This document shows positions 4,979-46,570 of a stretch of DNA of 64,000 nt, piece after piece. The stretch covers positions 4,093 through 68,092 of IMG/VR virus record IMGVR_UViG_3300017689_000002, one strand, 5' to 3'. The DNA comes from a virus. Its lineage: Duplodnaviria; Caudoviricetes. A program made the position numbers and the translations under genes. The stretch's first letter is position 1; each line of letters opens with the position of its first letter. The notes under the pieces are model-generated. The model did not search any database, was not told the origin of the DNA, and saw nothing but the letters and a program-made list of their open reading frames with translations.

Positions 4979-5098
4979 TTTCTCCTTGTTAAGTAGCCAA
5001 AAATGAAAGGCCATGTAAGGTCCTTCATACTAGTGCGTGTAATTCTTGCGAGGGGCGCCTGCTATATTTTCAACAGACGCCCCGCAAAGCAAGATATG

Positions 5099-5701
5099 TT
5101 ACTGGGCGTTCTTCTGTGCAGCCTTCCAAGCCTGGAAGTCCTCGAACGTGGGGGCGTCATCGAGAGGGGTTTCAGTCGGCGTGGGCTGTGCGTCCAACTG
5201 AGGAGCTGCCGTGGGGATCTGCACGGGCTCGTTGACCGTCTGGGGCTCAGGTGCCTGGGGCTTCTTGTATCCCTGCATCTGGGCCTCCGAGCGCTCACGG
5301 GCAGAGAGCGACTGCTGGATCTTTGCCGCCTGCTCATCCATACCCTTGGGCGCGATGCCGTTCACGAACACAGCAGCAGCGTCGGCGTCCGTAGCAAGCT
5401 CCATGAACAGCTTGGAATATGCCTCGGTCGAGGTGAAGCGCTCGAGAATATCTTCGGTCTTGTGGAAAGAACGACCGTCAAGAGACTTCTCACCGTAGGC
5501 CGCAGCGATGATGTCCTTGAACGCCTGGATGATCTTGGCGCCGTCCATCTCCGCGGCGATCTTCTGGATCTGCTGCTGGAAGTTGTTACCCTCTGCGCTG
5601 AGCTGGATCGAGAGGGCCTCGGCCTGCGTGAGGTTGAAGTAGAAGTCCTCAGTGCGCTCGTTGTTGTTGAAGTCGGTGTACGTGATGGTCTTCTTGAACA
5701 T
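5099..5701 (-). CDS. Putative tail assembly chaperone-like protein, located outside the tail operon
   Basis: MFKKTITYTDFNNNERTEDFYFNLTQAE...AYGEKS.DG..F.K...F..TEAYSKLFMELATDADAAA.FVNGI; recalled from siphovirus genes that follow the tail tube gene. Confidence 0.5.
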   Translation of the reverse strand: MFKKTITYTDFNNNERTEDFYFNLTQAEALSIQLSAEGNNFQQQIQKIAAEMDGAKIIQAFKDIIAAAYGEKSLDGRSFHKTEDILERFTSTEAYSKLFMELATDADAAAVFVNGIAPKGMDEQAAKIQQSLSARERSEAQMQGYKKPQAPEPQTVNEPVQIPTAAPQLDAQPTPTETPLDDAPTFEDFQAWKAAQKNAQ

Positions 5702-5794
5702 TAAATTTCTCCTGTAAGGGTTAGAATGGATGAATTGACAAGCTCGTCGAACTCGTCAGCGGGAATAAGTAGCGTGAGGCCGGTGTTCAGTTCC

Positions 5795-6460
5795 TCAAGC
5801 ATTTTCGACGGCATCGTAGGTGGTGTTATCAATCTTACCATACGTGTCGATATACGTCTCGCCCTTTTCCTTGTTGTGGGTGACTTCGTAGATCTTACCG
5901 TCGGCAATGGTTGTGCTCAGGAGAGCCTTCCAGTTACCGAGGATATAACTGAACGTAATGACATAGACATCATCGATATCGACCGACGTGCCCTTGTAGT
6001 TCAGTTCAAAGGCAAGAAGGCGTCGAGCGACTAGAGGATAGTCAGTCCCCTCGTCCGCAGAGCTGAACGGAATGAATTCGGGGCGAGCTTCCGCCATTTC
6101 CTTGTCCGCCTCAGCCTGCTCGATGAGTGAGTTGTAGCTCTCCTCTTCGTAAAGCTCGTAGTCTTCCCAGAAAGTTGACTCCTTGAAGAAACCACCAAAC
6201 CAATCATCTTTGTCCTTGATGATCACGCTGCCGGCCGTGAAACGGGCAACGCTAGCATCCGCATCGCCACTGGTCGAAATATACCATGCAGGAGAGTGGA
6301 GGTCCGTATCGTCCTCACCCTTGTCATAGTATTTGTCGACCTGATCAGTACCACTCGAATGGAACCAATCCCGAATCGGGACGATACCCTCAGGACTACC
6401 GTCCCAGAAAGCGGCCTCGATGATGCGGTCAGGGTTTTCTTTGCTCACGAACTTTTGCAT
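5795..6460 (-). CDS. Two-domain hypothetical protein; N-terminus belongs to the K..IEA.Q...GD.I..F paralog family
   Basis: MQKFVSKENPDRIIEAAFWDG...GSVIIKDKD...F.EDYE. Confidence 0.6.
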   Translation of the reverse strand: MQKFVSKENPDRIIEAAFWDGSPEGIVPIRDWFHSSGTDQVDKYYDKGEDDTDLHSPAWYISTSGDADASVARFTAGSVIIKDKDDWFGGFFKESTFWEDYELYEEESYNSLIEQAEADKEMAEARPEFIPFSSADEGTDYPLVARRLLAFELNYKGTSVDIDDVYVITFSYILGNWKALLSTTIADGKIYEVTHNKEKGETYIDTYGKIDNTTYDAVENA

Positions 6461-6462
6461 GA

Positions 6463-6768
6463 TCAGTCCTCTTTCTTTTCGTATTTCAATTGGAAGATCT
6501 CATCTTTACAGGGGTAGAGACCGACAGAATCTCGAAGAATCCATTCTCCTGGCGTAATGGTTACCCACGTATTATTAGCTTCGACATACAGCTCAGTTAC
6601 ACGGAAGATAACTCGGTTGGGACCAATTCGATTGTCCTCACGGATCCGACGAAGAGACCCAGAACCAAAGACCTCTGTCATTTCTTTCTGTAGTACCTTG
6701 AAAGTACCAGTGAACCGAACAGCGGTGACCTCAGAAGGCTTACTGATATATTTGTTACTCGATGACAC
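6463..6768 (-). CDS. Small phage protein of the K.Y..KP..V.A...GEWI...YPCK.EIF..KYE family
   Basis: GTG start at 6768; KYISKPSEVTAVRFTG...PGEWILRDSVGLYPCKDEIFQLKYE. Confidence 0.65.
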   Translation of the reverse strand: MSSSNKYISKPSEVTAVRFTGTFKVLQKEMTEVFGSGSLRRIREDNRIGPNRVIFRVTELYVEANNTWVTITPGEWILRDSVGLYPCKDEIFQLKYEKKED

Positions 6769-7645
6769 CGGCGTCAGCCTTTCCTCGACGGATCCGTGCG
6801 ATGATGACCAGAGCAGCACCCAGCAGTGCCAGGACAGATCCGATTTTGACGGGGAACACCCACTCGTCGGATCCGGTGTATGCCAGAGCCTGAGTGGTCT
6901 CAACAGGCTTAACAGCCGTCAGAGTCACCGGAGTGGTGTCCACAACCTGCTCCTCGACAACGGGGGTAACCGGCGTCACAGGGGTCTCTGCGGGCTGCTC
7001 AGGGGTGATTACGGGCTCTTCGGGCGTCACAGGAGTCTCAGGCTCCTCGGGAGTGACAACGGGCGGCACAACAACCACCGGGCATTCCTCCTCTGTCGTG
7101 GCTTCCTGGCGAACAGACGTCGTGGGGACGGTCTCACCGGCCTTCCAGATGTTGCCCTCCTTGTTGTAGACCCAGTCGGTGGTGTTCGTGGTCGTAGTGA
7201 TCTCGACGAGGTGCGTGTCGCAGTCAGGGATCCCACGAGTGTCAAACGACTCGACGATGGGCGCCGGCTTGTCCGGAACAACCACACAGTCAGGCAGAGC
7301 GGTCACGACGCCACGGGGGTGGAACGGAGCATCATCAGCAGGACTGTTCAGCACACCACCAGCGATGAGCGCCTGGTACTTCTTCTCGAGCTCGGGGCTG
7401 TCGATGGTGTACTTGTCGTCCTGTCGGATCCCGCCGCACTCGAGGACCGTGAGGGTCTGCGGGACAGCGAACGGCGACTCGACCGAAGCCGGTGAGGGAG
7501 CGTACCAGGTCTGCGTGACGTCGTACTTCTTGAAATATGGGTTCTCAGTCGCCGAGGCTGAAGGAGCCGCAAGCAGAGCGAACACGGACATGAGCAGGAT
7601 CGAGACAAGGGCAACAACGGAGCCCCAAAGCAGGTTTTTCTTCAT
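6755..7645 (-). CDS. Secreted, sortase-anchored (LAxTG) cell-wall protein
   Basis: Signal peptide ending ASA/T, Pro-Glu-Thr-Val stalk (TPEEP repeats), LAYTG then TM helix then RIRRGK. Confidence 0.8.
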   Translation of the reverse strand: MKKNLLWGSVVALVSILLMSVFALLAAPSASATENPYFKKYDVTQTWYAPSPASVESPFAVPQTLTVLECGGIRQDDKYTIDSPELEKKYQALIAGGVLNSPADDAPFHPRGVVTALPDCVVVPDKPAPIVESFDTRGIPDCDTHLVEITTTTNTTDWVYNKEGNIWKAGETVPTTSVRQEATTEEECPVVVVPPVVTPEEPETPVTPEEPVITPEQPAETPVTPVTPVVEEQVVDTTPVTLTAVKPVETTQALAYTGSDEWVFPVKIGSVLALLGAALVIIARIRRGKADAGVIE

Positions 7646-7659
7646 CAGTTTTTCTCCAA

Positions 7660-7908
7660 TTATTCTGTTGTGTGATCACGGATAAGGCCGACTTGTAGAT
7701 CAAACACCCGAGTACAGCGATATACCTCACTGGCTGTGGATGCGTACTTCTCTACTGCGGCTTTGAACCAATTGTGTAGACGGGTTGATTCATTTTCAGG
7801 AGCATCGACAACCATCCATGCAGCCTCATGAAGAGCGTCGTAGCTGTCTTGCTGTGTGAATTTGCGAGCTAGCGATCGAATACGGACTTGGTCTTTTGTC
7901 ACGGCCAT
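7660..7908 (-). CDS. Hypothetical protein
   Basis: 82-aa ORF with SD. Confidence 0.55.
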   Translation of the reverse strand: MAVTKDQVRIRSLARKFTQQDSYDALHEAAWMVVDAPENESTRLHNWFKAAVEKYASTASEVYRCTRVFDLQVGLIRDHTTE

Positions 7909-7968
7909 AGTGTACTCCTATTTTGAAGGGGACCTGCTGTAAGTGCTACAGGCCCCCTACGGATGTGA

Positions 7969-8157
7969 CTAGTCGACCTGCGTGACCTCGACGATTGCAT
8001 CACCATCGATGACGACCGTGTCGCCCCTGGTGAACTTGTCGAGGACTGCCTGACCGACGAAGTAGCCGACAGCCACTGCAGCGCCCTGGAGACCTCGCTT
8101 AATGAGGACCTCCTTGTTCTCGTTGATGGTCTTACCGAGTGCCTTGAGCTTGTTCAT
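7969..8157 (-). CDS. Small single-TM protein
   Basis: 62 aa, SD GAAAGGAG, one hydrophobic helix. Confidence 0.65.
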   Translation of the reverse strand: MNKLKALGKTINENKEVLIKRGLQGAAVAVGYFVGQAVLDKFTRGDTVVIDGDAIVEVTQVD

Positions 8158-8169
8158 TTGTTTCTCCTT

Positions 8170-8295
8170 TCAAGAGAGATATAGTTTCTTACATGAGTCA
8201 CATGTGACTTCGGATGTGGCAGTCGTAGCAGCGCGTACATCGTCGAGAGAGATACCACAATATGTGTAGTAGTCACCTTTGAAGTACCCGTGCAT
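8170..8295 (-). CDS. Small Zn-finger-like protein (41 aa, not in ORF track)
   Basis: Hand translation MHGYFKGDYYTYCGISLDDVRAATTATSEVTCDSCKKLYLS fills the gap exactly. Confidence 0.5.
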   Translation of the reverse strand: MHGYFKGDYYTYCGISLDDVRAATTATSEVTCDSCKKLYLS

Positions 8296-8297
8296 GG

Positions 8298-9056
8298 TTA
8301 CCAGATCTTGTGATAGTTGGCTACCGGAGGAACCGTGTAGTCAATGGAGATGCAGGGGACACCTGCCGTGAGGATGGTTGCAAACGAGATGTCCAGCATG
8401 TGGTCACCATCGAAGCCGACCTCTTCGCCTGCCGTGGTAGCTGCGAGACCGATCTTTCGATAGAAATCGTTCAGCGAGGCGTAGGAGGCGTTGTTGATCA
8501 GCGCGTTGATGTCATTCATAGCACTACGAACAGTCTCGACAGTGCTCTTGAACGAACGTCCAGAATACATGTCGTAAAACAACTGCTCGTTCTCAGCGAT
8601 GATTACCTCTTTGTCACCAATGGGCTCCCGCTCGAGACGCTTCTCAGCAACGCGTGCACGAATCTTCTCTTCGGTCTTGGTGCCAACTTCGTCAACCACG
8701 CCCTCCTTGTACTCGTGGTATGCCCTCTCAGTGAGAGAATATGCAGCAGCCAGAGCACCTGCACGCTTACTGCTCACTCGGTTGGAAGCGATGATAGCCG
8801 CGATCGTAGCACCACCCATAGCAACAGCAGGAGCGTAGGGGCGCCAAGCAACCTTGCAGACCTCGAGCTTGGTGAGTTCTGTATCTGGATGGTTGTAGTG
8901 GAAGTCGTCGATCTCTCGAAGCACCTGAGGGGTGGCCTTGACCGCCAGAACGGTTGTCGTGACCACCCCACCGACAGCGAATACCGTCAAAAGAGCCGGA
9001 GCGTTGTCATTGAGCGTCTTGCCGAATGTCTTCAGCAGGTTTGTTACGTCTACCAT
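8298..9056 (-). CDS. Conserved phage protein (DUF6353-like), second paralog
   Basis: PALLTVFAVGG..AVKATP, RPYAP, LAAAY, FYDMYSGRSF, YASLNDFY. Confidence 0.7.
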   Translation of the reverse strand: MVDVTNLLKTFGKTLNDNAPALLTVFAVGGVVTTTVLAVKATPQVLREIDDFHYNHPDTELTKLEVCKVAWRPYAPAVAMGGATIAAIIASNRVSSKRAGALAAAYSLTERAYHEYKEGVVDEVGTKTEEKIRARVAEKRLEREPIGDKEVIIAENEQLFYDMYSGRSFKSTVETVRSAMNDINALINNASYASLNDFYRKIGLAATTAGEEVGFDGDHMLDISFATILTAGVPCISIDYTVPPVANYHKIW

Positions 9057-9058
9057 AT

Positions 9059-9292
9059 TTATGCCTGTTCTTGATCGAAAATGGGCTGGGGCTTGACGGG
9101 TCGTCCATACTTGTCGTACCCCAGGACATGCAGGGTGGCGAGCTCCTCAGGATCGATCTCCACCATGGGGGCTTCGTTGTGAGCGTTCAGCTCGTTACCG
9201 ATCCGGTGCAGGGCACGAAGGACCATAGCGCCGAGCACCGTCCAGCAGATGAAAATGATAAGGATTGCGAATGCGGGGTTGATGTAATCCAT
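9059..9292 (-). CDS. Small membrane protein
   Basis: N-terminal TM helix, 77 aa. Confidence 0.6.
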   Translation of the reverse strand: MDYINPAFAILIIFICWTVLGAMVLRALHRIGNELNAHNEAPMVEIDPEELATLHVLGYDKYGRPVKPQPIFDQEQA

Positions 9293-9789
9293 TAGAAACT
9301 GGGCCTACCTTCTTGAAGAGTGTCGAACTCGTAACCTTTACCGGTCAGATATGTGATACTGTCTTGGTCTTCGAGCCAGACCTTGCTGATACCCTTTCTG
9401 TACCACCCAGTGGGATATACGAAGGGTCGGACTTTAAGTTCCTCGTTTGCCTCGGCGGGAACGTCCTTCTCGAAGTCCAGCTGGTTCTGCTCCTCCTCGA
9501 CGAGCGCGCTCAGGAGCAACAGGTAGTTGAGGTGATCGCCCAGCTTCTCAGTCCACATCTCAGGACTCGCGAGCTCGGGCTGTCGGATGAGATCGTAGAC
9601 CGAGACCGTGTGCTTGGCCATCATACCACCAAGAGCCTCCCGGGGCGTGATTCCCTGGAGCTTAGCCGCCACCTGAAAGTTATGCAGACGGTCACCATCA
9701 GTGGCATATTCGCCCGCCTTCTTGATGAGCGTAGCCTTGCAGGACTCGATTCGAGCCTCGATGTTGCGGTTGAAGTTGTTGCTGTCCAT
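9292..9789 (-). CDS. All-alpha nucleotide pyrophosphatase-like (MazG/DUF1599-type) protein
   Basis: KKAGEYA...DRLHNF...GMMAKH...EKLGDHLNYLLLL pattern. Confidence 0.55.
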   Translation of the reverse strand: MDSNNFNRNIEARIESCKATLIKKAGEYATDGDRLHNFQVAAKLQGITPREALGGMMAKHTVSVYDLIRQPELASPEMWTEKLGDHLNYLLLLSALVEEEQNQLDFEKDVPAEANEELKVRPFVYPTGWYRKGISKVWLEDQDSITYLTGKGYEFDTLQEGRPSF

Positions 9790-9800
9790 CAGATTTCTCC

Positions 9801-11931
9801 TTAGTCTTTGAGGGGTTCGGTCGAGATCAGCGCGTAGCCGTAGTCTTCGACATATCTACCAAATCCTTCGCGCTTGTCTTTGGGCTGAATGAACGGACGC
9901 TCTTTGAACATCTCCTCGCGAGCTCCCTCGAGGGTAGCGTGTAGTGACATGAGGGTGGGCGTCGAGTGATACGAGTCAGCGTTGAGCGACCAGAGTACAT
10001 AGATCAGGGTTTCCATCAGATTTCTCCTTATTCGTCGTAGTTCTTAGGACGCAGCCGTACGTCTTTAGATATCGTTAGGGTGTATTGATCAGGGTTGTAA
10101 ATGTCCATAGGTTCCGGATCCGTGTGCCACTCCTCGAGAATATACAAGGGAGCGAGCTCTTTGAACTTTTCCAGAGAACCCCCGAAGAGGCTGAGGATAT
10201 ACTCGTCGACCTGAGCCGCTAAGTCTCTCTCAGCCTCTTCGATGGCCTTGTGCAGGTAGAACTCGATCTTGTCCATCAGTGGTCCTGGAGGTGGTATTCC
10301 TTCACCTCGTAGGATCCGTCTTCCAGTCGACGAGCGATGATCTCCCACGTGCTGCAGTGCAGGGTGATGTCCATTCGCAGCCACCCCCGGTAGATGGGCA
10401 TGTCGTCACTGCGTTCCTCGGGCTCGGTGTTGAGCCACTTACTGACAGCAGCCTGGTGTTCTTCGTACGGCCCCCACTCCACCGGGTTGGCGCAGCTGTT
10501 GGACAGCAGGACGTCGAGGGTGAGAGGCGTGTGTTCCTGGTTGAGTTCGGCGATCTCAGTCATCATTTTTCTCCTTAGAAGTCTGCGGAATACTTGTAGT
10601 GTACGTTGGCAAGACCTACCTGATCTCTATCGACAAAAGCACAATGCTTGTCGAAGAACTCCATGATCTTGTTGTAGTTGACCATATTACCGCTGTAATT
10701 ACGGACACCCTCTTCGAAGTTGAGTCGAACGCTAGTGCGCTCCCAGACAGCGGCAGCGACCCAGAAGGTGACAGCATCTTCAAGAGCGACCATATCTCCG
10801 GTCTGAGTGTACTTGCGCCCAAAATTGTAAAGCGCGTGGACGTCATCGAAGTCGAGCATCGGTTTTCTCCTTAGTTGAAAGCGGCGCCGTTTTGGACGTT
10901 GCGAACCGTGATGTTATCGCCCGTGAAGAGAGCTGCATCGTCCGGTGTCATGCACCATGCGATGATGGTGTTTCCGCGGTAGATAGCATAGCCGTGCCGA
11001 CCACAAGCGGACATGTCAATCTTTTCCATTAGTATTTCTCTCCCGTGATGATGGGCCAGAGACCCGAGATGCGGAACGCGTCGTTGCCTACGCGAATGGT
11101 GTCTGACCTACCACTACCGTTTTGGACATTAAGGTGGCATTTCTTGTGATAATAGCGATAGGTTCGATCAACCTTCACTTTCACCATGTTTTTGTCAGAC
11201 ATGACATGTCCGCAGTGATTGCAGTGCTGTCCCGAATTAGCCATCAGTTTGCCTCTCTGACTTCGAACTTACGGTCGGGGTACTGGACTGCCCAGTCGGC
11301 TTGCATACGCTCCAGGCGCTCCTTGTTACGGGAATACATAGCGACTTTGCCTTCGGGGGTAACGAGCTTGTACATCAGATGTTCTCCATTTTCTGTTTGA
11401 CCGTGTCCTTTTTGATCTCGTCCTCAAACCACTCGACTCTAGCACGAAGCTGGTCCGAGATAATATCCAAAGTGCGAACGTCTCGACGAAGGGTCTGGAG
11501 ACCCGCCCAAAATCCTTGTCGAAGACGGGCCTTATCGATGAACTCGTCCATGAGTGCAATGTTGATTGCGACCTCATCCAGGACCTCCGGCGAGAGCGTC
11601 TGAGCGTACTTGTAACCGAGAGCATTCATGTCCATGACCTCTTCGAGCGTTGCCTTGATCATCAGTTCTCCTTGAGAAGTTCGGAGAACCAAGCGTGGTC
11701 CTCGAGTTTACCATTGCAGTGCTCGCAGATTGCGCCACGAGCCAGGGGCATATCAAACGCACCATCACATGCCTCTACGGGCGGTTGATAGTGCGCATCC
11801 ATTTCCTCTTGCGAATTTGGCTGAAAGCCGCATTTGCATTCCATCCAGGAACCAAATGCGAAAGAGACATAGCTCCAACCATGATACTTTGGATCATTCT
11901 TGGCGAAAACTTCAGCCACAACAGTGTTCAT
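9801..11931 (-). other. Run of about eight small hypothetical genes (9801-10016, 10028-10276, 10276-10566, 10575-10859, 10871-11029, 11029-11244, 11375-11662, 11662-11931)
   Basis: Tightly packed minus-strand ORFs, most with AAGGAGAAA-type SD; no recognisable family. Confidence 0.6.
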
Positions 11932-12392: not shown

Positions 12393-12423
12393 TTTATCTC
12401 CTTAGTTGAGGTTATTACTTCTA

Positions 12424-12546
12424 CTATAGGGCTTGTAATTCTTGCGAGGCTGAGCTCTCTTCGCAGGTTCGAATCGGGGCGTGATTTACACCACAATCCG
12501 GGCACTTGACAACGATAAAAGCGGCGGGAATTTTCAGATCATACAT
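12424..12546 (-). CDS. 40-aa Zn-finger-like peptide (not in ORF track)
   Basis: SD AAGGAG; MYDLKIPAAFIVVKCPDCGVNHAPIRTCEESSASQELQAL. Confidence 0.5.
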   Translation of the reverse strand: MYDLKIPAAFIVVKCPDCGVNHAPIRTCEESSASQELQAL

Positions 12547-12808: not shown

Positions 12809-12864
12809 GATGTGCTCCTTAGTTAGGGTTAATACTTCTATTAAGAGGCTTGTAATTCTTGCGA

Positions 12865-12962
12865 GACACAAAGAAAACAAGAAGGATTGCGAATGATAAT
12901 TGGCAATGTTGACTAGCTTGTTACGGCTATGGGCTTCTTGTTTTAATGGGAAGATTAGATCT
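12865..12962 (-). ncRNA. Candidate structured ncRNA A
   Basis: No ORF or SD; directly after promoter motif 12965-12992; perfect 11-bp closing stem 12874-12884/12934-12944 with two inner hairpins. Confidence 0.45.
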
Positions 12963-13032
12963 TCTTCATTACAGTGTGAGTAAATCCTGCGAGCAAAACT
13001 TAAAGTCCTTGTGGGGACTCTAAGCCTTGAAC

Positions 13033-13239: not shown

Positions 13240-13330
13240 GATTTCTCCTTGGGTTAGTTGGGGGGTTCATTATAGGCCTTGTAAATCCTGCGAGCAAAAA
13301 TTTAAAGGAGAGTAAACTTCGCGGTTACTT

Positions 13331-13428
13331 GCATTCAGATAGTGGGGTTTGCACCTAATGATCTAGTCATCACGACCTAGCATTTGTCAAGCAAATGTGT
13401 GGGGTCTCTTAAGGGTATCTGAATACTC
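13331..13428 (-). ncRNA. Candidate structured ncRNA B (multi-branch)
   Basis: No ORF or SD; directly after promoter motif 13432-13459; 11-bp closing stem 13416-13426/13331-13341 enclosing three hairpins, one with a GCAA tetraloop. Confidence 0.55.
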
Positions 13429-13500
13429 TTCTTCATTATAGGCCTTGTAAATTCTGCGAGCAAAAGAGAAAGTCCGTGTTAGGGACCTCTCTTTTGTTCC

Positions 13501-13746: not shown

Positions 13747-13831
13747 GATTATCTCCTTGGTTTGGTGGGGTTCATTATAAGCCTTGTAAATCTTGCGAAC
13801 AAAAGAGAAAGGCCTTGTGGGCCTCACTCCT

Positions 13832-14086: not shown

Positions 14087-14211
14087 GGTTTACCTTTCTT
14101 TTGGGGTTCATTATAAGCGCTGTAATTTGTGCGAACAATTTTTTAAAGCGTTGTAAAACTAAAAGCCTTTGTGGGGCTGTTAGTTTTTGTGGAACTTGTA
14201 CTGGGGTTTTA

Positions 14212-14340: not shown

Positions 14341-14432
14341 TGTGTTCTCCTTAGTAGTGGGTTTCTTCTATTATAAGCCTTGTGATTTCTGCGAAGAAAG
14401 AAGGAGTACGTGTTAGGTACTCGATCTTTTGA

Positions 14433-14639: not shown

Positions 14640-14794
14640 GGGTGTTCCTTTCGTTGTGGGGGTCATTATATAGTGTGTAATTCTTGCGAACAATTTTTTA
14701 AAGCGTTGTAAAATAGGAGTACCTGTGATTTCGCTTTGTGGGCGGGTCACAGGTACTCCTATTTTGATTACGTCTTTGTTGGTTGTTGCGTGGG

Positions 14795-15085: not shown

Positions 15086-15127
15086 ACGGGTCTCCTTTCA
15101 AGAGGGTTCTCATTATAGCCCGTGTGA

Positions 15128-15493
15128 TTACTGCGAGGCTCCCGTATTGGTCACCTTGAACACCATAGTACCCTTGTCCTTGACCGACTCCAGATCGTTC
15201 TCCAGAACCAGCTTCAAAGAGTCGCCATCCTCGGAGGGAGTGACGAGAACTTCGCCGTCAATACCCTTTTCGGACCTCTTGTAGTTACTCTTGCTCACCT
15301 TGACCGTAACACCCAGGAATACGGAGACGGCCGCGATAATACCAACGACCTCTTCCGCGTAGGGAAGCCCTACGATCTGTGAAATGGTGAAGTACAGCGT
15401 GCCCAAAGCCGGCAGGTAGACCAATGCGGCATTGCGGAACGCGTCGTAGGTCACAGGGCCCAGGGTAGGACTAGTCTTGCTGTGGTCGGACAT
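15128..15493 (-). CDS. Holin (Dp-1-type) at end of tail operon
   Basis: Start MSDHSK after SD GGAGG; two TMs, VYLPALGTLYFTISQIVGLPYAEEVVGIIAAVSVFLG..KVSKSNY. Confidence 0.7.
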   Translation of the reverse strand: MSDHSKTSPTLGPVTYDAFRNAALVYLPALGTLYFTISQIVGLPYAEEVVGIIAAVSVFLGVTVKVSKSNYKRSEKGIDGEVLVTPSEDGDSLKLVLENDLESVKDKGTMVFKVTNTGASQ

Positions 15494-27156: not shown

Positions 27157-28023
27157 TTACGCGAAGGTGTAGACCCAGTCGTCGTCCGAGCTGGCCGAGA
27201 GCTTGTAGCCCTGCGTCGCAACCGCGGTGACAACGGTGTCCTTCGTGATCGTAACGGTTCCGCTGACGGCCTTGCCATCGATGCGGTACTGAACACCGGT
27301 GACCGTGGGGATCGTGATGACCTTGGTCGTGGCGTTGTACGACGGAGCCGCCGCAGTGACGGCCGTGTTGGTACCCGACATGATGGAGGCAATCTCGGCG
27401 GGGAGGGGCAGACGGGGGTCCGTAGCGCCGCTACCGTAGAGGATGGCCTCGATCTCAGCAAGCTTGGCTGCCGGGACCTTGGTCGAGTCGATGGTGATCG
27501 TAGCCGACGGCTTGCTACCAGGAACGTCGACCGCGGTGGTCGTGAGCTCCCAGCTGAAGGTGATCGCCTCAGGCGACTCGTTGACGGTACCGAACGCCTT
27601 CTCCGTGGGAGCAGCAAGTGCCCCATAGATAAGGTGGATCTTGTAACCCTTGTCGGTACCAAGAACGTCATCACCAACGAGCGTGCGGTACGAAAGACCA
27701 AACGTCAGACGGTTCTGCTGACCGACAGTGATACCAGGAGCGATCTCCTTGGTACCGTCGTTGGCCGCAAACTCATCGGGGTAGGTGAAGGCTTCGATGG
27801 TTGCACCGAACTCCTCCGCCGAGATGAGGTTGAGGTACTTGATGTTGTCGGCGTACATCGGAGTAGCTTCGGCACCCGAGGGGCTTTCGCTAATCGAGAC
27901 GAGACCATTCCAGGCCACGCCATTGACGTAGTTGCCGGCACTATCGCGCTGGTAAAGGACACCCTTGTTAACGCCGGTTTCGTAACGGCGCTGACCGGTG
28001 GCATCCCAAATGAGTGCTACCAT
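27157..28023 (-). CDS. Major tail (tube) protein with C-terminal Ig-like domain
   Basis: phi13-type tube motifs; GC-rich high-expression codon usage. Confidence 0.9.
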   Translation of the reverse strand: MVALIWDATGQRRYETGVNKGVLYQRDSAGNYVNGVAWNGLVSISESPSGAEATPMYADNIKYLNLISAEEFGATIEAFTYPDEFAANDGTKEIAPGITVGQQNRLTFGLSYRTLVGDDVLGTDKGYKIHLIYGALAAPTEKAFGTVNESPEAITFSWELTTTAVDVPGSKPSATITIDSTKVPAAKLAEIEAILYGSGATDPRLPLPAEIASIMSGTNTAVTAAAPSYNATTKVITIPTVTGVQYRIDGKAVSGTVTITKDTVVTAVATQGYKLSASSDDDWVYTFA

Positions 28024-32229: not shown

Positions 32230-32817
32230 CTAGCGACCCGTTGCGGCAGTAAGAGCTCCAGCGACACCGAAGAGAACAGCTGATGCAACCAGAGCCTGAG
32301 TAGCTTCCTTAGTGGTAGAAGACGTGGCCGTGTCCCAGGTGTCGCTGTACTTGTCAGAGGCGGCCCGCAGAGCGCGCTTTGCAGCCACCTTACCCTGAGT
32401 CTGCTTGTCAATCTTGTACTGCTGGCGAGCCTTCTGGTACGCCTCAGCGTCCTTCGGGAGACGGTTACGTGCGTCTTCGATGTTCTTGTTGTAGGCATCG
32501 CGGTCGGACTTACGCGCCTCTTTGTTTTTTGCACGAAGATCAGCCTTATTGGCGGCCTTCGTGTTCTTGATAGCCCCACCAGCGGCACGTCGGTTAGCCC
32601 CCAGATTCGAGCCCCCACCACTGTCAGAGCGCGCGGAACGCTTGCCCCACTTCATGCCCTTCACACCAAAGTGCTCAAGGAAATCATCAACTGCCACATC
32701 ATTAGCCATTTCGGCTCCTTCGTTAGTTTGGCTATGAGCCGCTTCGGTTTCTTCCACGTCCATAGAAATGATCTGGCCGTTAGAATCGTATTCTACTTTA
32801 AATTTGAAATCAGCCAT
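32230..32817 (-). CDS. HxGVKGMKWG-motif protein 1 (possible internal start at 32709)
   Basis: FLEHFGVKGMKWGKR; basic helical C-terminus. Confidence 0.75.
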   Translation of the reverse strand: MADFKFKVEYDSNGQIISMDVEETEAAHSQTNEGAEMANDVAVDDFLEHFGVKGMKWGKRSARSDSGGGSNLGANRRAAGGAIKNTKAANKADLRAKNKEARKSDRDAYNKNIEDARNRLPKDAEAYQKARQQYKIDKQTQGKVAAKRALRAASDKYSDTWDTATSSTTKEATQALVASAVLFGVAGALTAATGR

Positions 32818-33278
32818 TAGAGATCCCTAATCGTCCAGTCAGGCATTCCGTCAGTTTCGACATTGTAGTCGAGCGCAACAACCTTTTTCTTGCCCGAGGG
32901 ACTAACGCCCATCTCAGCAGCTGCCTCATTCCAACTATCAGTAGCGAGTTTAGAATACCCTTTGTAATACTTGGTTGCAATGGCTTTGTTTTTTGGAGCG
33001 TTAAGATCTTTACCCTTAAACTCGGGCTGGTCGTTATAGGCCCCGAGTTTTGCGTTGATCTTTCGGGCGCCACTGTTGAAAATGGCATAAGGATAACCGC
33101 TAGTCATCTTCTTTTCCCATTTAGCGTCAGCTTTAGCAAGCTTCTTTTCGGCTCTTGAGGGTTTAGTAGAGCCTCCAGAACCGCTAGAACCTCCAGAGTC
33201 GCCACCACTGTCAGAGCGCGCGGAACGCTTGCCCCACTTCATGCCCTTGACACCGAAGTGCTCAAGGAAATCATCAAC
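32615..33278. repeat. 77-bp direct repeat (32615-32691 and 33202-33278)
   Basis: 75/77 identical; both differences synonymous; encodes VDDFLEHFGVKGMKWGKRSARSDSGG. Confidence 0.9.
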
Positions 33279-33290
33279 ACTATCAGTCAT
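32817..33290 (-). CDS. HxGVKGMKWG-motif protein 2
   Basis: Start MTDSVDDFLEHFGVKGMKWGKR. Confidence 0.75.
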   Translation of the reverse strand: MTDSVDDFLEHFGVKGMKWGKRSARSDSGGDSGGSSGSGGSTKPSRAEKKLAKADAKWEKKMTSGYPYAIFNSGARKINAKLGAYNDQPEFKGKDLNAPKNKAIATKYYKGYSKLATDSWNEAAAEMGVSPSGKKKVVALDYNVETDGMPDWTIRDL

Positions 33291-33291
33291 G

Positions 33292-33813
33292 TCAACCCCA
33301 AAGGTTTCTAATGTTAGCGGTTCTCGGATCGTTAGCAATGTCTTTGATGGTGCGCTTACCATATTCTAGGAGTGCTTTATCAACACCCGCATTGTGAGCG
33401 GCACCAGCAGCACCAAGAAGAACAATACTTGCGGCCGAAGCGTTACGCATATTACCTTTAAGAACGTTGACAACACCCCTAGTAGTTTTCTGGGCACCCT
33501 TTACGGTATCAGTACGCTTGCGTTTACCTCGAGCTTCTGAAGCTCGCTTAGCCATATCCTGACCATTCAGCTGTCGTTCAAACGACTCTTTGTAAGCAGC
33601 ATCTTTAGACTTAGACTGAACAGTGCCATTGATGAGGCGACGTCTGACTCCTGCGCCCTCACCATAGTACATTTTAGCGCGAGCAAACTCTTTAGCGTCT
33701 TTACCGGCGTCTCTCTCGGTTCTACGCGAAGTACCAGCCGGACGCGAGGATGTCTTTCCCCATCGCATACCTTTAACGCCATAGTGAGCTAGAAACTCAT
33801 CTACTTCACTCAC
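33292..33813 (-). CDS. HxGVKGMKWG-motif protein 3
   Basis: MSEVDEFLAHYGVKGMRWGK. Confidence 0.75.
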   Translation of the reverse strand: MSEVDEFLAHYGVKGMRWGKTSSRPAGTSRRTERDAGKDAKEFARAKMYYGEGAGVRRRLINGTVQSKSKDAAYKESFERQLNGQDMAKRASEARGKRKRTDTVKGAQKTTRGVVNVLKGNMRNASAASIVLLGAAGAAHNAGVDKALLEYGKRTIKDIANDPRTANIRNLWG

Positions 33814-39376: not shown

Positions 39377-39396
39377 ACGCACCTCCTCAGGGCGAA

Positions 39397-40291: not shown

Positions 40292-40299
40292 ACACGTTT

Positions 40300-41230: not shown

Positions 41231-41252
41231 GTGCGCTCCTAGTGGTCAGAAG

Positions 41253-42083
41253 TTAAACGCCGTACTCGGCGCACTTCTCAGCCCAACCACCCTCGGTGAG
41301 ACCCACGATGGACGTGAGCTTCTCCGGGGGCACGTAGAGCTTACCGCGCTTAGCGTTAGCTGAATCGTTCGCGTTAGCCTTGTCGACTTCCTGGTTGTAA
41401 ACCACAAACTTGGCACGGTGGTTTGCGTAGTCCTGCTCTGTGAAGAAGATGAATCGTCCCTCTTCAATCGGACCATCCTTCTCCTGTCGACCCTTGAGGC
41501 CGGGGCCGAACACAGCAACCTGTCCGGTCGCCTCTCGACGCCAATATTCGCGCATGGGCATTTCGTCTTCTTCCTCTTCGACTACCGGATCGGTAGGATT
41601 GTTCGGGAACGGTTTGGCAGAACCAGAAGCGGTGCTGCTGTATGCAGATAGATCAATCTTCGGAGGGCCGATGATGGTAGCGTGCCAATCTTCACTAGCA
41701 ACATTACGCTTCATACCAACGAGAGCATAGGCCTCGTCACGTACAGCCTTCATGTTTGTGTTAGTGTCAGTCGAGCGACCATAGCCGTGCTCTGAAGTTC
41801 CGGGGTAGGCGGCTGCCGGAGTCTCGCCCCGAGCCTGTCGACCTTTCTGGAACCACTGGTTGGGTGTCTTGTCCGAAGTCTGGTACGAGTATCGGCAAGC
41901 ACGGTCGGCTTGGACTCCCAACCAACGGTAACCCTCGGTTCCGGTGATCCATCCGCCTCGTTTGCGAACGTACTCGAAGACAAACTTGATGCGTCGATAC
42001 AGATCTGGTGAGAGCCACATGCCCTCGAAGTAGATCAGAGCCGAGCGAGGGGCAGTTCCGTTAGCGTAGTCAGTTACTTCCAT
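41253..42083 (-). CDS. Endolysin, M15-type Zn peptidase
   Basis: EGYR...Q...AAYPGTSEHGYG.S.D...EDWH Zn-binding pattern. Confidence 0.8.
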   Translation of the reverse strand: MEVTDYANGTAPRSALIYFEGMWLSPDLYRRIKFVFEYVRKRGGWITGTEGYRWLGVQADRACRYSYQTSDKTPNQWFQKGRQARGETPAAAYPGTSEHGYGRSTDTNTNMKAVRDEAYALVGMKRNVASEDWHATIIGPPKIDLSAYSSTASGSAKPFPNNPTDPVVEEEEDEMPMREYWRREATGQVAVFGPGLKGRQEKDGPIEEGRFIFFTEQDYANHRAKFVVYNQEVDKANANDSANAKRGKLYVPPEKLTSIVGLTEGGWAEKCAEYGV

Positions 42084-42209
42084 CTGTTCTCCCCTTTCAA
42101 TAGGGTTTGGTAGGCTTTGCCGGTAGTTCTAGACCACTTTGTACCTACCGCCCAGAGGGGTAAAAAGTGGATTGTTTGCCCAAAAAATCCCTCCGGGGCT
42201 ATTTTTGGG

Positions 42210-42218
42210 AGGCAGGCG
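42210..42218 (-). other. Candidate cos overhang CGCCTGCCT (genome terminus)
   Basis: In the only GC-island intergenic gap between last and first genes; resembles CGCCNNCCT overhangs recalled for related phages; HNH next to terS supports cos packaging. Confidence 0.5.
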
Positions 42219-42277
42219 ATGCGGGAGGGGGGCCGGATTCAATAGACCCCCCTCCCCTACTAAATATTTTTTGAGAT

Positions 42278-42520
42278 TTATGAATTTGGAGCAGCAACTT
42301 TTCGGTAGATGCCCAAAACATTTTCTTTTACTATCTCATCGATCGCATACTCGAGTGCAAGTGATTGATCAACTTCACTTAGTTCATCGCTTGACTTAGT
42401 GATCCGAGCAAGCAGACCACTAGTACAGTAGCCGGCTTGCTCATCATACTGATACCATTCATCCCAATGTGTGAAAGGATTGAAAGGATTGTCTGTAGTA
42501 GTTAGCATGTGTTCGTTCAT
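42278..42520 (-). CDS. Conserved acidic hypothetical protein after the polymerase
   Basis: MLTTTDNPFNPF..WDEW..YD...GY.T.GLLARI. Confidence 0.7.
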   Translation of the reverse strand: MNEHMLTTTDNPFNPFTHWDEWYQYDEQAGYCTSGLLARITKSSDELSEVDQSLALEYAIDEIVKENVLGIYRKVAAPNS

Positions 42521-42536
42521 AGACTTTCCTCTCTAT

Positions 42537-45239
42537 CTATTCACTAAGAGCATCATTGAGTGTTGATGTAGGCACACCAAGGGCATCAGAGATCTCTGCC
42601 TGGGTGTAGCCAGAAGCCAGCATCTGCTTAGCTCTTGTAACCTTAGCAGGCACCATGACTGTAGCAAGACGGGGAGTAGCCAACTGCTTGACTAGATCCA
42701 CATCAGTGTTAGCAAGGATTGCTTCTAGCTTGTTGTTAGTAATAGCACCTGCTTGAATGGCCTTCCATTCGTTAGGTGTGATGTCCACAGGTTCCTTCTT
42801 AGCACCCACTCTAAGACGTGCTTCAGTAAGTGCTTGACCCTTGATCTTCTTAAGGTCAGCTGCATCCATGTTGGGGTCAGCCTGGCGCTTAGCGGAGATG
42901 GTGGCATTAGCAAGTAGCTGGGCCTGTCGTTCCTGGGGCTTGTTCCTGAAGGCCAGGGCCAGTTTACTATTGAGGGAGGCTACCTCAGCAGCATAGGTCT
43001 GCTTAGCTGTAGGTGAGTAGGGTGTGGACTTGGTACTGATGTAGGCCTTACGAGAGTCGTTAGCTAGGGCCTTGAGCTTGTTAGCGTGGTCAGCATAGAC
43101 AAACTCCATAGGTGTACCAACACCCTTGATCAGACTGCGTGCATCATCTACCTCAGCCATACGAGTAGACTTGGTAGACTTCTGTACCACCTTGCCTGTA
43201 GTGGCCGATACATACGATGCACCTGTACGCTCATACATCTTGCGTCCAGTACGGGGGTCAATACGACCACCATTAGCAGCAGACCTATCCTTACGCTCAT
43301 CCACACGGACAGCCGAAGAGGCCTGTGAAATAAGCGTACTAGCACCTGACCTAGAGGTACCTTGATAGTCCTTCTTGAGCTGGGCTATATTATTATCAAT
43401 AGCCGACTGCTTCCAGTTGAGGTTGTGCTTCTCAGCATCAATAACAACCATCGAGTGCTTGACAGCTCGAGCGATCTCAGAGTGAGGTGCACCCTTGACA
43501 GTCATATCCGTAATGAGGTTAGAGACGTCGCCCATTTTCAACTGCTTGGTGCGAGGACTCATTTTCTTCATGCCAGGGTAGGCAGGATATGCAGCTTGCG
43601 GATCGAAGCCCTTAAGAGCAGCCAAGGGAGCAGCACTCTTAATTTGCTTGTTGTTATTTGGGATGACCAGAACAGTGTCACCATCGAAGTCAGCACCAGA
43701 AAGTCGACCAGCGACCTTGGAGTTGATACCGACAGCATCCTGTGCATTTCCCATAACCTTCTTGGCAGCGGCAACACGGTTATTTACCGTCAGTTCAGGG
43801 ATCTCAAAGATACCACCATGAGGATATCGAACAAGCGCAACACGCTCACCATCACGGAACTGAGGTGCGTAGATCTCAGTGTCCTTCATTGCGTTGATGG
43901 GCAAAATAACCTGAGTCTTCTGACGAGGCAGAGCTGCTGCTTTCAAGTGAACAGCGGAAGAATCCAGATCATCAGAAAATGAATCGAGAAGCTTGCGTCG
44001 AACAGCCGGGTTAGTCAGAGACATAATCTCGTCGTACTCGGCTTTCTTGATTGCATATTTGAGCTCGAGCTGCTGCTTAGCCAAAGCGGGAGACTGCTTG
44101 GACAGGACCTGAGAAGAGATATTCTTAGACCACTTGTCCCAGTCACCTTCCTCGTTGACGATATTCATCGAGGAGAGTTGCGTCTTGCCCTTGCTGTCAA
44201 CATAGTGTCGTTGGCTGACGATGGATCCGAAGGGGTTATCTCCGTCTTCCTTCATCGGCTTCATAGCCTTGAGCTTGTCGCCCTTGTCACTCTTATTCGT
44301 GTTGAAGCGGAGGTCAACGCCATCAGGCAGATCATCCGTGTACATTGCCATACCCTTGAGGTAGTGCGTACCATCAACGGCAACACGAACTTGAGCATAC
44401 TGCTTAGTGCCCAAGGAAATATCATCCACGCCACGACGGACCTGAATAACACCGTCCATGTCAGCGCCACCGTCTTCGGCATATCTCACTTCAATGCGCT
44501 TCGAAGACACATTGCGGGGAGTTTCAAGCCCAAGAGCGGTGTGACCACGATCCTCAGAATATGTCTGAATGGAACGGATCTTGTCCTTGTTGTCAACCAG
44601 TTCTTTGAAGGTTGCGTCCGGCGGAGCGAGAACCTTCAGACGAGTATATTCGCCGGTACCGACCTGCTGGACCTTCAGGTACATGACCTGATATCCTTCT
44701 TCTTCCAGCATAGCCACTGCCGTGTTCATCTTGGTAGCACTAACACCACCGAGACGATCACCGTACTGAGTACCAGTACCAATATCAAGGAAGCGCTTCT
44801 CGCCAACCTCATCCTTCAACACATTGGCTGTGTCAATAAGGTTGTCGGCCTTTGCCTGAGTCGTAGGATCTAGAAGGGCACGAACATTAGATTCGTTAAC
44901 GCCCATCTGTGCACCGATGGCGACATTAGACATGCCTTTTTCTTTGAGCTTACGTGCAGTGTTGATCTGTGACTGCTTCTGCTCATTTTTAGCGATAGCC
45001 TTAGCAGCACGAAGTTGGGTCGTAGAAATACCCATACCTTCGGCGATCTTCTGCTCGCTGAGACCTTTAGCCTGAAGACCGGCCACATAGTCCAGGAACT
45101 GCTTGTTACGCTGGTTGGGGTTTTCGCCCGAGCCCCAAGGATATCTTCCACTCTTGTGAAGGATTCCAATGTGCTGCAGAGCACCCTCAAAGTCATCGTC
45201 TACTTCAACGCTGTAGATATCTTCACTCATTAGCAGCAT
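42537..45239 (-). CDS. Single-subunit two-barrel RNA polymerase-like protein with terminal HTH domains (start may be 45230)
   Basis: Catalytic GADFDGD at 43677-43691, VALVRYP, YAQVR...YLKG; two N-terminal and one C-terminal HTH. Confidence 0.8.
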   Translation of the reverse strand: MLLMSEDIYSVEVDDDFEGALQHIGILHKSGRYPWGSGENPNQRNKQFLDYVAGLQAKGLSEQKIAEGMGISTTQLRAAKAIAKNEQKQSQINTARKLKEKGMSNVAIGAQMGVNESNVRALLDPTTQAKADNLIDTANVLKDEVGEKRFLDIGTGTQYGDRLGGVSATKMNTAVAMLEEEGYQVMYLKVQQVGTGEYTRLKVLAPPDATFKELVDNKDKIRSIQTYSEDRGHTALGLETPRNVSSKRIEVRYAEDGGADMDGVIQVRRGVDDISLGTKQYAQVRVAVDGTHYLKGMAMYTDDLPDGVDLRFNTNKSDKGDKLKAMKPMKEDGDNPFGSIVSQRHYVDSKGKTQLSSMNIVNEEGDWDKWSKNISSQVLSKQSPALAKQQLELKYAIKKAEYDEIMSLTNPAVRRKLLDSFSDDLDSSAVHLKAAALPRQKTQVILPINAMKDTEIYAPQFRDGERVALVRYPHGGIFEIPELTVNNRVAAAKKVMGNAQDAVGINSKVAGRLSGADFDGDTVLVIPNNNKQIKSAAPLAALKGFDPQAAYPAYPGMKKMSPRTKQLKMGDVSNLITDMTVKGAPHSEIARAVKHSMVVIDAEKHNLNWKQSAIDNNIAQLKKDYQGTSRSGASTLISQASSAVRVDERKDRSAANGGRIDPRTGRKMYERTGASYVSATTGKVVQKSTKSTRMAEVDDARSLIKGVGTPMEFVYADHANKLKALANDSRKAYISTKSTPYSPTAKQTYAAEVASLNSKLALAFRNKPQERQAQLLANATISAKRQADPNMDAADLKKIKGQALTEARLRVGAKKEPVDITPNEWKAIQAGAITNNKLEAILANTDVDLVKQLATPRLATVMVPAKVTRAKQMLASGYTQAEISDALGVPTSTLNDALSE

Positions 45240-45261
45240 TCCCTCCGTTCAAATATGGTAA

Positions 45262-45840
45262 TCACGCGAAAGCTTCAGCACGCATACGGTCGATGATCGC
45301 ATCGGCGCTTAGCAGTCGCTCACGGATGGGGATAATATCATCCAGTTGCGGTTCGAAGATTCGGACTTCATCATTCTGGTAAATACGGAGCTCAACATCA
45401 ATAGTCATGATGTCAACCTTGTATTCAATGCAGAAGAACACAACGTAAATAAGAAGCTGATCAAACGAGGCCTCGTGGACACCCGTCTTGAGGTCGGCGA
45501 TGATGAGCTTGTATCGGTTCTGTCCAGGGATCTTACGGTAACCAATAGCATCAGCTGTACCGAAGGCATTTGCCGACGCAACCAACATGACCTCAGGTGA
45601 AAGGCGAAGACCAATGCAGTCGTTCACATATTGGTTGAGTGTGGCGGTCGTGTCAGGAAGCTTGACCTTCATCTCAATGAGGTGCTTAGCGAGCTCGTGG
45701 AGCTGCGTGCCCTTCATGGCGTCGAGACGAGTCATGTACGTGTCGACGATCTTGTCGTCGTTGTACCTGATCCAGTGATATTTGCTGGCACTAAGTGTAG
45801 CGTGCCGACCCTCGATGTCGGCGTGGTTCTTCCAGAACAT
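45262..45840 (-). CDS. PD-(D/E)XK / Cas4-like exonuclease
   Basis: GTQLHELA, EV, GTADAI, DLKTG, QLLIY. Confidence 0.75.
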   Translation of the reverse strand: MFWKNHADIEGRHATLSASKYHWIRYNDDKIVDTYMTRLDAMKGTQLHELAKHLIEMKVKLPDTTATLNQYVNDCIGLRLSPEVMLVASANAFGTADAIGYRKIPGQNRYKLIIADLKTGVHEASFDQLLIYVVFFCIEYKVDIMTIDVELRIYQNDEVRIFEPQLDDIIPIRERLLSADAIIDRMRAEAFA

Positions 45841-45903
45841 GGTTCTCCTTTTAATGAAGACAAATATAGACTACCATCACGTAACGTCTATACTGTCAGT
45901 TGC

Positions 45904-46197
45904 CTATCGACCGTCGAAGAACTCTTTCAAGAACGTCAACACATCTTTCTTGTTCTCAGGATATACCGTTGTAGCAAACGATAGAGCTGCCAGCTTGTCC
46001 AGATACCATTCCTGGTTTGGCTGATATGGCGCCCGAGCAGATCGCTTACATTCCAGGACCGCCCAGCGCTCATGCCAGAGAACTGTGAGGTCGGGGAAGC
46101 CTTGTCGATATCCTGAGTCGTTCTTGAGGATGACACAGCCGGGGAAGAGGAACTCAATATCCTTGATTAGTTCAGCTTGGAACTGACTCTCTAGCAT
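45904..46197 (-). CDS. VRR-NUC-type nuclease (resolvase-like)
   Basis: ESQFQ, QGFPDL, LECK, PNQ. Confidence 0.8.
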   Translation of the reverse strand: MLESQFQAELIKDIEFLFPGCVILKNDSGYRQGFPDLTVLWHERWAVLECKRSARAPYQPNQEWYLDKLAALSFATTVYPENKKDVLTFLKEFFDGR

Positions 46198-46253
46198 TGT
46201 CACCACCTCAAGCAAAAATATAAGTCGTTGTAGAGCAGAGGTATTCTACTCCT

Positions 46254-46570
46254 TCTATTACAATATGCGTAATTCGTGCGTGGACATCAAAAGGCGGAGA
46301 ATTTTTTTAAATCGATGTAAATCTTGCGAACGGCCTCGTGGCCAAAAACCCACTTATTTTACCAACTTCTATTCAACTTTTTGTAATAGACATATACCTC
46401 TATTATTTTTTCGCGTATAGAAGTTATAGATAAAAGTGGGTTTTTGGCCACAAAACGCGTCCACAAACGTCCAAAACAGCCCTTTTTGCGTCCACAAACG
46501 TCAATTTTCGACATTTGGGATTTTCCGATGTCCACGCACGAATTACAACGCTCGAACTTGTTTGTGGACA
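46254..46570. other. Candidate replication origin with nested inverted repeats and iterons
   Basis: Perfect 20-bp IR 46269-46288/46527-46546, perfect 18-bp IR 46338-46355/46434-46451, AT-rich core, 15-bp direct repeat at 46457 and 46488. Confidence 0.55.

Follow-up and report, generated by a model that had tools for sequence, protein, structure and literature searches.

We analysed a 64,000-nt window of a Caudoviricetes genome from the IMG/VR database (record IMGVR_UViG_3300017689_000002; the window is bases 4093-68092 of the 68,092-bp record, which is rated 100% complete) in which a 14-bp box, followed after 5 nt by an A/T-rich hexamer, recurs on one strand. We consider it probable, at roughly two chances in three, that the phage's own RNA polymerase, a 900-aa single-chain two-barrel enzyme of the PHROG 4291 or 'phage 1706 orf75' family, uses this motif as its promoter. 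An original prediction made from the letters of the window had taken the motif for a phage-specific promoter that the phage polymerase reads, and the proposal is supported by the distribution of the motif, which tracks the polymerase gene, and by the nature of the protein, a two-barrel polymerase with helix-turn-helix (HTH) modules.

The plausible genes of the window lie nearly all on the minus strand. Along the direction of transcription, replication genes are followed by a 230-nt intergenic region, by genes for an endonuclease, a Cas4 exonuclease and the 900-aa protein, by lysis, head and tail genes over about 27 kb, by a 3-kb array of tiny genes and by further non-structural genes, the last of these open reading frames (ORFs) encoding 1,282 aa at the place where relatives encode a DNA primase-polymerase. 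The exact box, TCGCA-N3-WTYACW, occurs 12 times in the window, always on the minus strand, where shuffles of the sequence gave an expectation of 0.23 +/- 0.47, and the whole record holds no more. Nine of the 12 boxes are continued by N5 and TRTART (seven TATAAT, one TATAGT and one TGTAAT), a combination for which the shuffles gave an expectation of 0. The other three are followed by TAGTAT (copy 5051), CTTAAT (copy 12864) and TTAAAA (copy 46329), copies being named here by the high end of the box, which is the higher coordinate of each span given below. These three depart from the description given in the original prediction; the start coordinates that it listed fall 2-3 nt inside the 30-nt spans, and it left unsaid that all copies lie on the minus strand. 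An alignment of the 12 copies shows that conservation runs on past the hexamer as GAA(C/G) or AGAAG.

A 30-nt matrix (26 bits) trained on the 12 exact boxes gave, at a cut-off of at least 12 bits, 13 matches on the minus strand and none on the plus strand of the window. The thirteenth match is a degenerate copy that heads the polymerase operon, as had been proposed; its TGTAAT after N5 was correctly described, but its box departs from the consensus. What had been taken for a half copy close by is present, and is an exact box followed by TTAAAA. Beyond the known 13, no match above 8.2 bits was found before the structural genes. No further repeated element occurs in the other intergenic gaps of the window, and none of these gaps yielded a second motif fit to serve the polymerase. 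Each of the ten copies in the array stands between a hairpin-plus-T-run and a ribosome-binding site, copy 15136 heading the array and overlapping the end of the preceding ORF; copy 5051 stands about 7 kb beyond the array, and the intergenic region ahead of the endonuclease-Cas4-900-aa operon holds one full copy and another that is box-only. The copies are as follows.

15107-15136, minus strand: promoter copy, TCGCAGTAATCACA, N5, TATAAT, GAGAA; first of the cassette array, overlapping the 3' end of the upstream ORF; 32.5 bits.
14660-14689, minus strand: promoter copy, TATAAT, with the AT-rich stretch TTTTACAACGCTTTAAAAAATTGT in front; 33.3 bits.
14365-14394, minus strand: promoter copy, TATAAT and AGAAG; 37.1 bits.
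14105-14134, minus strand: promoter copy, TATAAT, with an AT-rich upstream stretch as at copy 14689; 35.8 bits.
13769-13798, minus strand: promoter copy, TATAAT and GAACC, directly after the terminator hairpin at 13809-13825; 42.6 bits.
13430-13459, minus strand: promoter copy, TATAAT, ahead of the 138-nt ORF-less unit sRNA1; 40.6 bits.
13264-13293, minus strand: promoter copy, TATAAT and GAACC; 42.6 bits.
12963-12992, minus strand: promoter copy, TGTAAT, ahead of the 102-nt ORF-less unit sRNA2; 32.4 bits.
12835-12864, minus strand: promoter copy, CTTAAT, lacking the A at hexamer position 2; 35.4 bits.
12418-12447, minus strand: promoter copy, TATAGT, last in the array; 37.5 bits.
5022-5051, minus strand: isolated promoter copy, exact box, TAGTAT, before gene 4493-5014; a hairpin and T-run begin at the first base past the hexamer.
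46252-46281, minus strand: degenerate promoter copy, ACGCACGAATTACG, N5, TGTAAT, AGAAG, heading the endonuclease-Cas4-polymerase operon; 19.4 bits; an orthologous copy stands about 900-1000 nt ahead of the polymerase gene in most of 58 polymerase loci.
46316-46329, minus strand: box-only copy, exact box TCGCAAGATTTACA, then TTAAAA instead of a proper hexamer.

The operon headed by the degenerate copy consists of three genes.

45904-46215, minus strand: small endonuclease, first gene of the operon (phrog_93; Circum gp96 is at the same place).
45262-45840, minus strand: Cas4-family exonuclease (phrog_3953, E 7e-62; relatives' annotations).
42537-45239, minus strand: 900-aa single-chain two-barrel RNA polymerase (GADFDGD, PHROG 4291, fold match).

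PHROG 4291 matches the 900-aa protein from end to end (E = 0), and identity to other family members is 38-60%. The metal-binding DxDGD loop is present as GADFDGD at residues 515-521, of which G515, A516, D517, D519, G520 and D521 are invariant in 53 sequences. An AlphaFold model built with these 53 sequences has a mean predicted local distance difference test score (pLDDT) of 81.4 and a predicted template-modelling score (pTM) of 0.65, and its top Foldseek matches in the PDB are QDE-1 (1.5e-9), the P23-45-type gp64 (4.4e-7), plant RDR2 and gp96, with bacterial beta-prime and eukaryotic Rpb1 ranking next. A sequence search against PDB chains returned nothing meaningful, with no detectable relation to gp64 or gp96, and it was the fold search alone that matched. 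By its modelled fold the 900-aa protein is a two-barrel RNA polymerase with a double-psi beta-barrel core, and polymerase activity is predicted for it. Its N-terminus carries two HTH modules, at about residues 55-74 and 97-130, and its C-terminus a sigma-region-4-like HTH at residues 871-897; the HTH matches include Sigma70_r4_2 and GerE. Residues 1-42 are disordered yet carry a conserved SGRYPWGSG. The same architecture has been recognised before: a signature protein of an actinophage supercluster and of Lactococcus and Faecalibacterium phages, named HTH-RdRP-HTH (RdRP, RNA-dependent RNA polymerase), was predicted to have RNA polymerase activity and an HTH at both ends (bioRxiv 10.1101/842583; PMC2919709), and Ruprich-Robert and Thuriaux placed the phage 1706 group in a family separate from YonO (PMC2919709). 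No convincing minus-strand terminator was found between the polymerase operon and the structural genes.

The motif tracks the polymerase gene through phages of two bacterial phyla. Whether it does so across genomes had been set beforehand as the point on which the proposal should turn. Polymerase homologs are present in 250 of 50,697 phage records, a base rate of about 0.5% among isolate phages. Five polymerase-bearing phage genomes were examined for the motif, and all of them carry many copies of a motif built alike and confined to one strand; over the full set of isolates, all six, from six host genera, show the architecture in register.

Curtobacterium phage Yotsuba: 9 copies, TCGCA-N3-WWWACA-N5-TATAGT or TTTAAT-AGA(A)CCCC.
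Arthrobacter phage Circum: 8-10 copies, TCGCGTAAATTACA-N5-TATAAT.
Streptomyces phage Moozy: at least 5 copies, TCGCA-N3-TTTACA-N5-TATAAT, TATAGT or TGTAAT-GAGACCCCTAC.
Faecalibacterium phage FP_oengus: 13 copies, (A)CGCGAAAAAT.CA-N5-CTTTAT-GGAAGG.
Lactococcus phage P092: 11 copies, TTTACA-N5-TATAAT-GA(A/G)A.

In these relatives most copies separate small genes where the non-structural genes begin, which in the four actinophage and Lactococcus genomes is after the tail and lysis genes. When a strict 25-nt motif pattern was scanned over IMG/VR it returned at least 108 stretches; among the first 50 records examined the polymerase is present in 31, and in all 18 of those 50 that are at least 90% complete. 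The reverse approach took 67 IMG/VR loci selected by the polymerase gene alone and scored them with the window-trained matrix, which gave 42 matches on the polymerase strand and 0 on the opposite strand. In most of these loci the best match lies 890-1010 nt before the polymerase gene, which is the place of the copy that the original prediction had put at 46254. Five Clostridia lysogen genomes (17 Mb) contain a local variant 10 times, 9 of the 10 being in the prophage, on the contig and strand of the polymerase within about 26 kb of its gene, while a reversed control occurs 0 times. Megablast of the cassette array against the 50,697 phage records gave no match, so DNA similarity cannot explain the shared motif. 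We infer from this joint distribution that the polymerase is the reader of the motif.

The position of the motif relative to the start of the RNA bears on which polymerase could use it. The closing helix of one of two ORF-less units in the array, sRNA1, begins at the first base past the hexamer, as does the hairpin-plus-T-run after copy 5051. An 81-nt structured RNA of Yotsuba starts one base past the hexamer, and a tRNA-like gene identified by ARAGORN in FP_oengus starts 2 nt past it. If transcription began 6-8 nt downstream, the 5' arm of these RNA structures would be lost. The start site thus seems to lie 0-2 nt after the hexamer, a position that would put the hexamer at -6 to -1 and the box at about -25 to -12 rather than at the -31 to -18 originally proposed.

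A host sigma-A promoter, in which a TTG(C/T)TC element would serve as the -35, had been offered as the alternative. This element stands 17 nt upstream of the hexamer in six of the 12 copies, not five as had been counted. The alternative is weakened because the distance of the TTG is not fixed, being 20 nt from the hexamer in Circum, and because the TTG is absent in other relatives; in Yotsuba it falls within the T-run of the preceding terminator. No copy of the motif in the window has a TTGACA-like -35 at 16-18 bp spacing, and none passes a consensus scan. Consensus sigma-70-type sites occur in the genome at chance level (25 against 20.0 +/- 4.7, and 9 against 14.7 +/- 3.8), and no canonical host promoters stand out elsewhere in it. 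The hexamers of the relatives include TTTAAT (5 of 9 in Yotsuba), CTTTAT (12 of 13 in FP_oengus) and TTTTAT (in the Clostridia prophages), all three without A-11, and also TATAAC, which is without T-7. Factors of the sigma-70 family need A-11. With no fixed -35, rule-breaking hexamers in the relatives and starts that seem to abut the hexamer, the motif probably does not behave as a sigma-A promoter.

If the phage polymerase is the reader, we picture its use of the motif as follows. The enzyme would bind the 14-bp box as duplex, plausibly, as originally proposed, through one or more of its fused HTH modules; the box can be seen as two TYRCA-like half-sites one helical turn apart, and the downstream TTACA resembles a -35 hexamer. 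It would then melt the A/T-rich hexamer exactly 5 bp downstream of the box and start at the conserved G or A, 0-2 nt past the hexamer. The array copies would drive the tiny-gene cassettes that come directly behind the tail genes, together with two small RNAs, copy 5051 would drive the gene block downstream of it, and the weaker copy 46281 would drive the nuclease-Cas4-polymerase operon and probably also the structural genes, about 30 kb, behind it.

Several points weigh against reading the motif as the promoter of the phage polymerase. The polymerase gene stands behind a copy of its own promoter and no other promoter type was found in the genome, so that the first polymerase molecules would have to come from virion delivery, from host reading of some copies or from upstream read-through. 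At the end of every cassette stands an ordinary intrinsic terminator, which is a known signal of the host polymerase. The co-occurrence could also reflect the shared ancestry of the whole phage lineage, some other conserved factor being the reader. TAnnnT fits nine of the 13 hexamers of the window, seven being perfect TATAAT, as would suit the host sigma-A, so that on this phage's own evidence a hybrid host promoter could be at work, and a sigma-less enzyme has no evident mechanistic reason to need TATAAT. No covariation was found between the HTH helices and the variants of the box, and no published enzyme assay of the phage 1706/PHROG 4291 family was found in the literature.

The strongest competitor is a hybrid promoter at which host sigma-A holoenzyme takes the hexamer as its -10 while a phage HTH factor on the box, then at about -31 to -18, replaces the -35 contact; precedents are the sigma appropriation by T4 MotA/AsiA and the actinobacterial PafBC 'sigma adaptation' at a -26 element. 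The TATAAT hexamers just mentioned fit it, and within the orthologous polymerase-operon promoter TATAAT is the part conserved best. The position of the box relative to the hexamer is that of PafBC-type promoters, which combine a -26 element with a canonical -10 but have no -35 (PMC8635444). The cassettes are placed where early genes are expected and carry ordinary terminators at their ends, and no other promoter class is visible from which the host could start. However, the TTTAAT, CTTTAT and TTTTAT hexamers of the relatives lack A-11, the structured RNAs and the tRNA-like gene begin too close to the hexamer for it to be a -10 element, and the architecture, which tracks the phage polymerase, stays the same in phages whose hosts belong to two phyla. 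Pfam and PHROG scans, which covered 24 of the window's proteins, showed no MotA, AsiA or WYL-type factor among them, although no systematic search was aimed at such factors, and the annotations of the relatives list no sigma factor, MotA or AsiA. On balance we regard a hybrid host promoter as unlikely, if still the most serious of the competing explanations.

Asymmetric stoperator or operator sites exist in some actinobacteriophages, and the box could likewise be the operator of a phage repressor or timing factor acting over weak, -10-only host promoters, the polymerase using other sites. Two box-only copies without a usable hexamer lie near the polymerase operon (46316-46329, minus strand; 46534-47, plus strand), so the box can stand alone as a putative binding site; moreover YonO, the one characterised relative, transcribes its late genes from a single start (PMC5467207). 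Yet the distance of 5 nt from box to hexamer never varies, either among the full copies of this genome or in any of the relatives, and the initiating bases downstream are conserved, for which reasons one composite promoter fits better than an operator laid over a promoter. Nor does any intergenic gap contain a second motif for the polymerase, and we think an operator very improbable. It could finally be argued that the copies are alike merely through recent duplication of cassettes, with no shared function, given that the cassettes are modular and that two of them have a common 24-nt upstream junction. This is hardly credible, for the flanking genes are unrelated in sequence and the motif is kept in phages without megablast-level similarity and at the orthologous place before the polymerase operon in dozens of loci; such cross-genome conservation already contradicts duplication as the sole explanation.

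The reading in which the phage polymerase uses the motif can be carried further, tentatively and with more doubt than belief on our part, to a transcription system that does without host RNA polymerase. Enzyme made late, from the operon in common with the structural genes, would be carried into the next cell, or would be the first product of the entering genome end, and would read all 13 promoters by means of its sigma-region-4-like HTH on the -35-like TTACA, 5 bp away from the melted hexamer. It would be a minimal fusion of 'core' and 'sigma' in one polypeptide, common to hundreds of phages of Actinobacteria and Firmicutes, and could serve as an orthogonal expression system.

Promoters of the T7, T3 and SP6 polymerases are contiguous elements of about 30 bp with a part recognised as duplex, a TATA-like part right before +1 and initiating purines, and they occur in many copies on one strand. 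The motif described here has the same working layout, although the Pol-I fold of those enzymes is unrelated and the sequence is different; they use a specificity loop, whereas recognition here would presumably fall to the HTH modules. Closer in fold are gp64 and gp96 of phage P23-45, the likeness being a compact two-barrel siphovirus polymerase together with a conserved upstream motif found only in enzyme-bearing relatives (PMC10770324). The gp64 motif is GC-rich and the gp96 motif AT-rich, and relatives without the enzyme are without the motif, so that the co-occurrence argument made here is the same as that used for the P23-45 motifs (PMC10770324). The differences are that the motif sequence is another, that there is no detectable sequence relation and that our enzyme carries HTH modules fused to its two termini. 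The P23-45 promoters were mapped by chromatin immunoprecipitation sequencing (ChIP-seq) and cappable-seq (PMC10770324), whereas the motif here is known from sequence alone. YonO of the Bacillus prophage SPbeta is likewise a single chain of about 100 kDa with a DxDGD loop and a relation to the RdRP/QDE-1 type, and its long late operon transcribed from one start is comparable to the copy that heads the polymerase operon and structural block here; in contrast, its promoter sequence is undefined (PMC5467207) and it is not reported to carry fused HTH modules. PafBC (PMC8635444) and T4 MotA/AsiA resemble the present case in that a factor box lies between -35 and -10, the -10 looks canonical and a -35 is missing, but they work with host sigma-A or sigma-70, a true -10 and starts about 7 nt downstream, whereas here the relatives have rule-breaking hexamers and the starts apparently abut the hexamer.

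The HTH-RdRP-HTH signature protein is the same as PHROG 4291 and phage 1706 orf75, that is, the family of the 900-aa protein; the paper that described it (bioRxiv 10.1101/842583) is silent on promoters, and the motif and its co-distribution with the gene are added here. No published description of the motif was found in the Arthrobacter, Rhodococcus, Faecalibacterium and supercluster literature, a scope that did not take in Summer et al. 2011 and Garneau et al. 2008. Single-chain polymerases of the two-barrel type are regarded as models for the ancestor of RNA polymerases, and the present family is cultured and tractable (phages of Arthrobacter, Gordonia, Streptomyces, Curtobacterium and Lactococcus, and prophages of gut Clostridia) and comes with a sharply defined 30-bp candidate promoter. 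This candidate makes it possible to test how a sigma-less two-barrel enzyme finds a promoter, whether HTH modules act as sigma, and whether host transcription is bypassed. If true, it would correct routine annotation of the protein as 'HTH DNA-binding protein' or 'RNA-dependent RNA polymerase', and a compact orthogonal polymerase-promoter pair for Gram-positive hosts would be possible.

The two ORF-less units of the array, each of which closes in a T-run, are probably small RNAs.

13297-13434, minus strand: sRNA1, structured non-coding RNA of 138 nt whose closing helix pairs the first bases past the hexamer with the bases before the T-run; minimum free energy (MFE) -29.3 kcal/mol, z -2.6.
12866-12967, minus strand: sRNA2, structured non-coding RNA of 102 nt with a long terminator stem at its end; MFE -19.0 kcal/mol, z -3.9.

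Searches of the whole window for tRNAs and Rfam families gave no match, sRNA1 and sRNA2 included. The same promoters precede tRNA-like genes in FP_oengus and P092 and the structured 81-nt RNA in Yotsuba. From the first base after copy 5051 a hairpin is followed by CATTTTTGG (4996-5026, minus strand), ahead of the ribosome-binding site of the next gene, and the ending TTTCATTTTTGG also closes the promoter-proximal RNA of Yotsuba (27791-27871). The hairpin may function as a terminator or attenuator in the leader, to which host and phage polymerases would respond differently.

Three consecutive small proteins encoded between the large terminase and the portal (33292-33813, 32817-33362 and 32230-32817, all minus strand) share the Pfam DUF7211 module at their N-termini (DDFLEHFGVKGMKWGKR; E about 1e-13 in each case). 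The N-terminal motif LxHYG...SGRYPWGSG of the polymerase (LQHIGILHKSGRYPWGSG) looks like this module by eye, but hhalign gave a probability of only 49% over 12 columns, and the Pfam DUF7211 profile has no match to the polymerase. A shared module would hint at capsid targeting of the polymerase; neither hhalign nor Pfam substantiates it. The idea that the second N-terminal HTH, with the helix NESxVR, reads the CGC half-site came from Lactococcus phage P092, which is without both, and was not upheld: two IMG/VR loci (L185 and L186) keep the NESxVR helix though their best upstream matrix match is without CGC, and another (L188) is without the Arg but has TCGCA.

All copies seen at 22.7-27.0 kb of Moozy continue past the hexamer with the same 11 nt, GAGACCCCTAC, a much stronger conservation than that seen downstream in the window, and the reverse complement of these 11 nt occurs once nearby. 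The 24-nt A/T-rich stretch TTTTACAACGCTTTAAAAAATTGT is identical ahead of two promoter copies of the window (14690-14713 and 14135-14158, minus strand), and may either act as an upstream enhancer element or be left over from the duplication of a cassette. Three boxes lie inside 300 bp ahead of the polymerase operon, namely that of copy 46281, the box at 46316-46329 and a plus-strand box-only copy, ACGCACGAATTACA, at 46534-46547, which is identical at 13 of 14 positions to the box of the 46281 promoter; the cluster may serve autoregulation. A perfect inverted pair of TGGCCAAAAACCCAC, at 46339-46353 (plus strand) and 46436-46450 (minus strand), encloses about 80 bp of A/T-rich DNA a short way upstream of the polymerase-operon promoter. 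The same 15-mer occurs twice, identically, at the equivalent place in FP_oengus, with 1-2 mismatches in Circum and two IMG/VR polymerase loci, and exactly in a third IMG/VR locus, and the pair is a candidate for an origin or regulatory site conserved across phyla.

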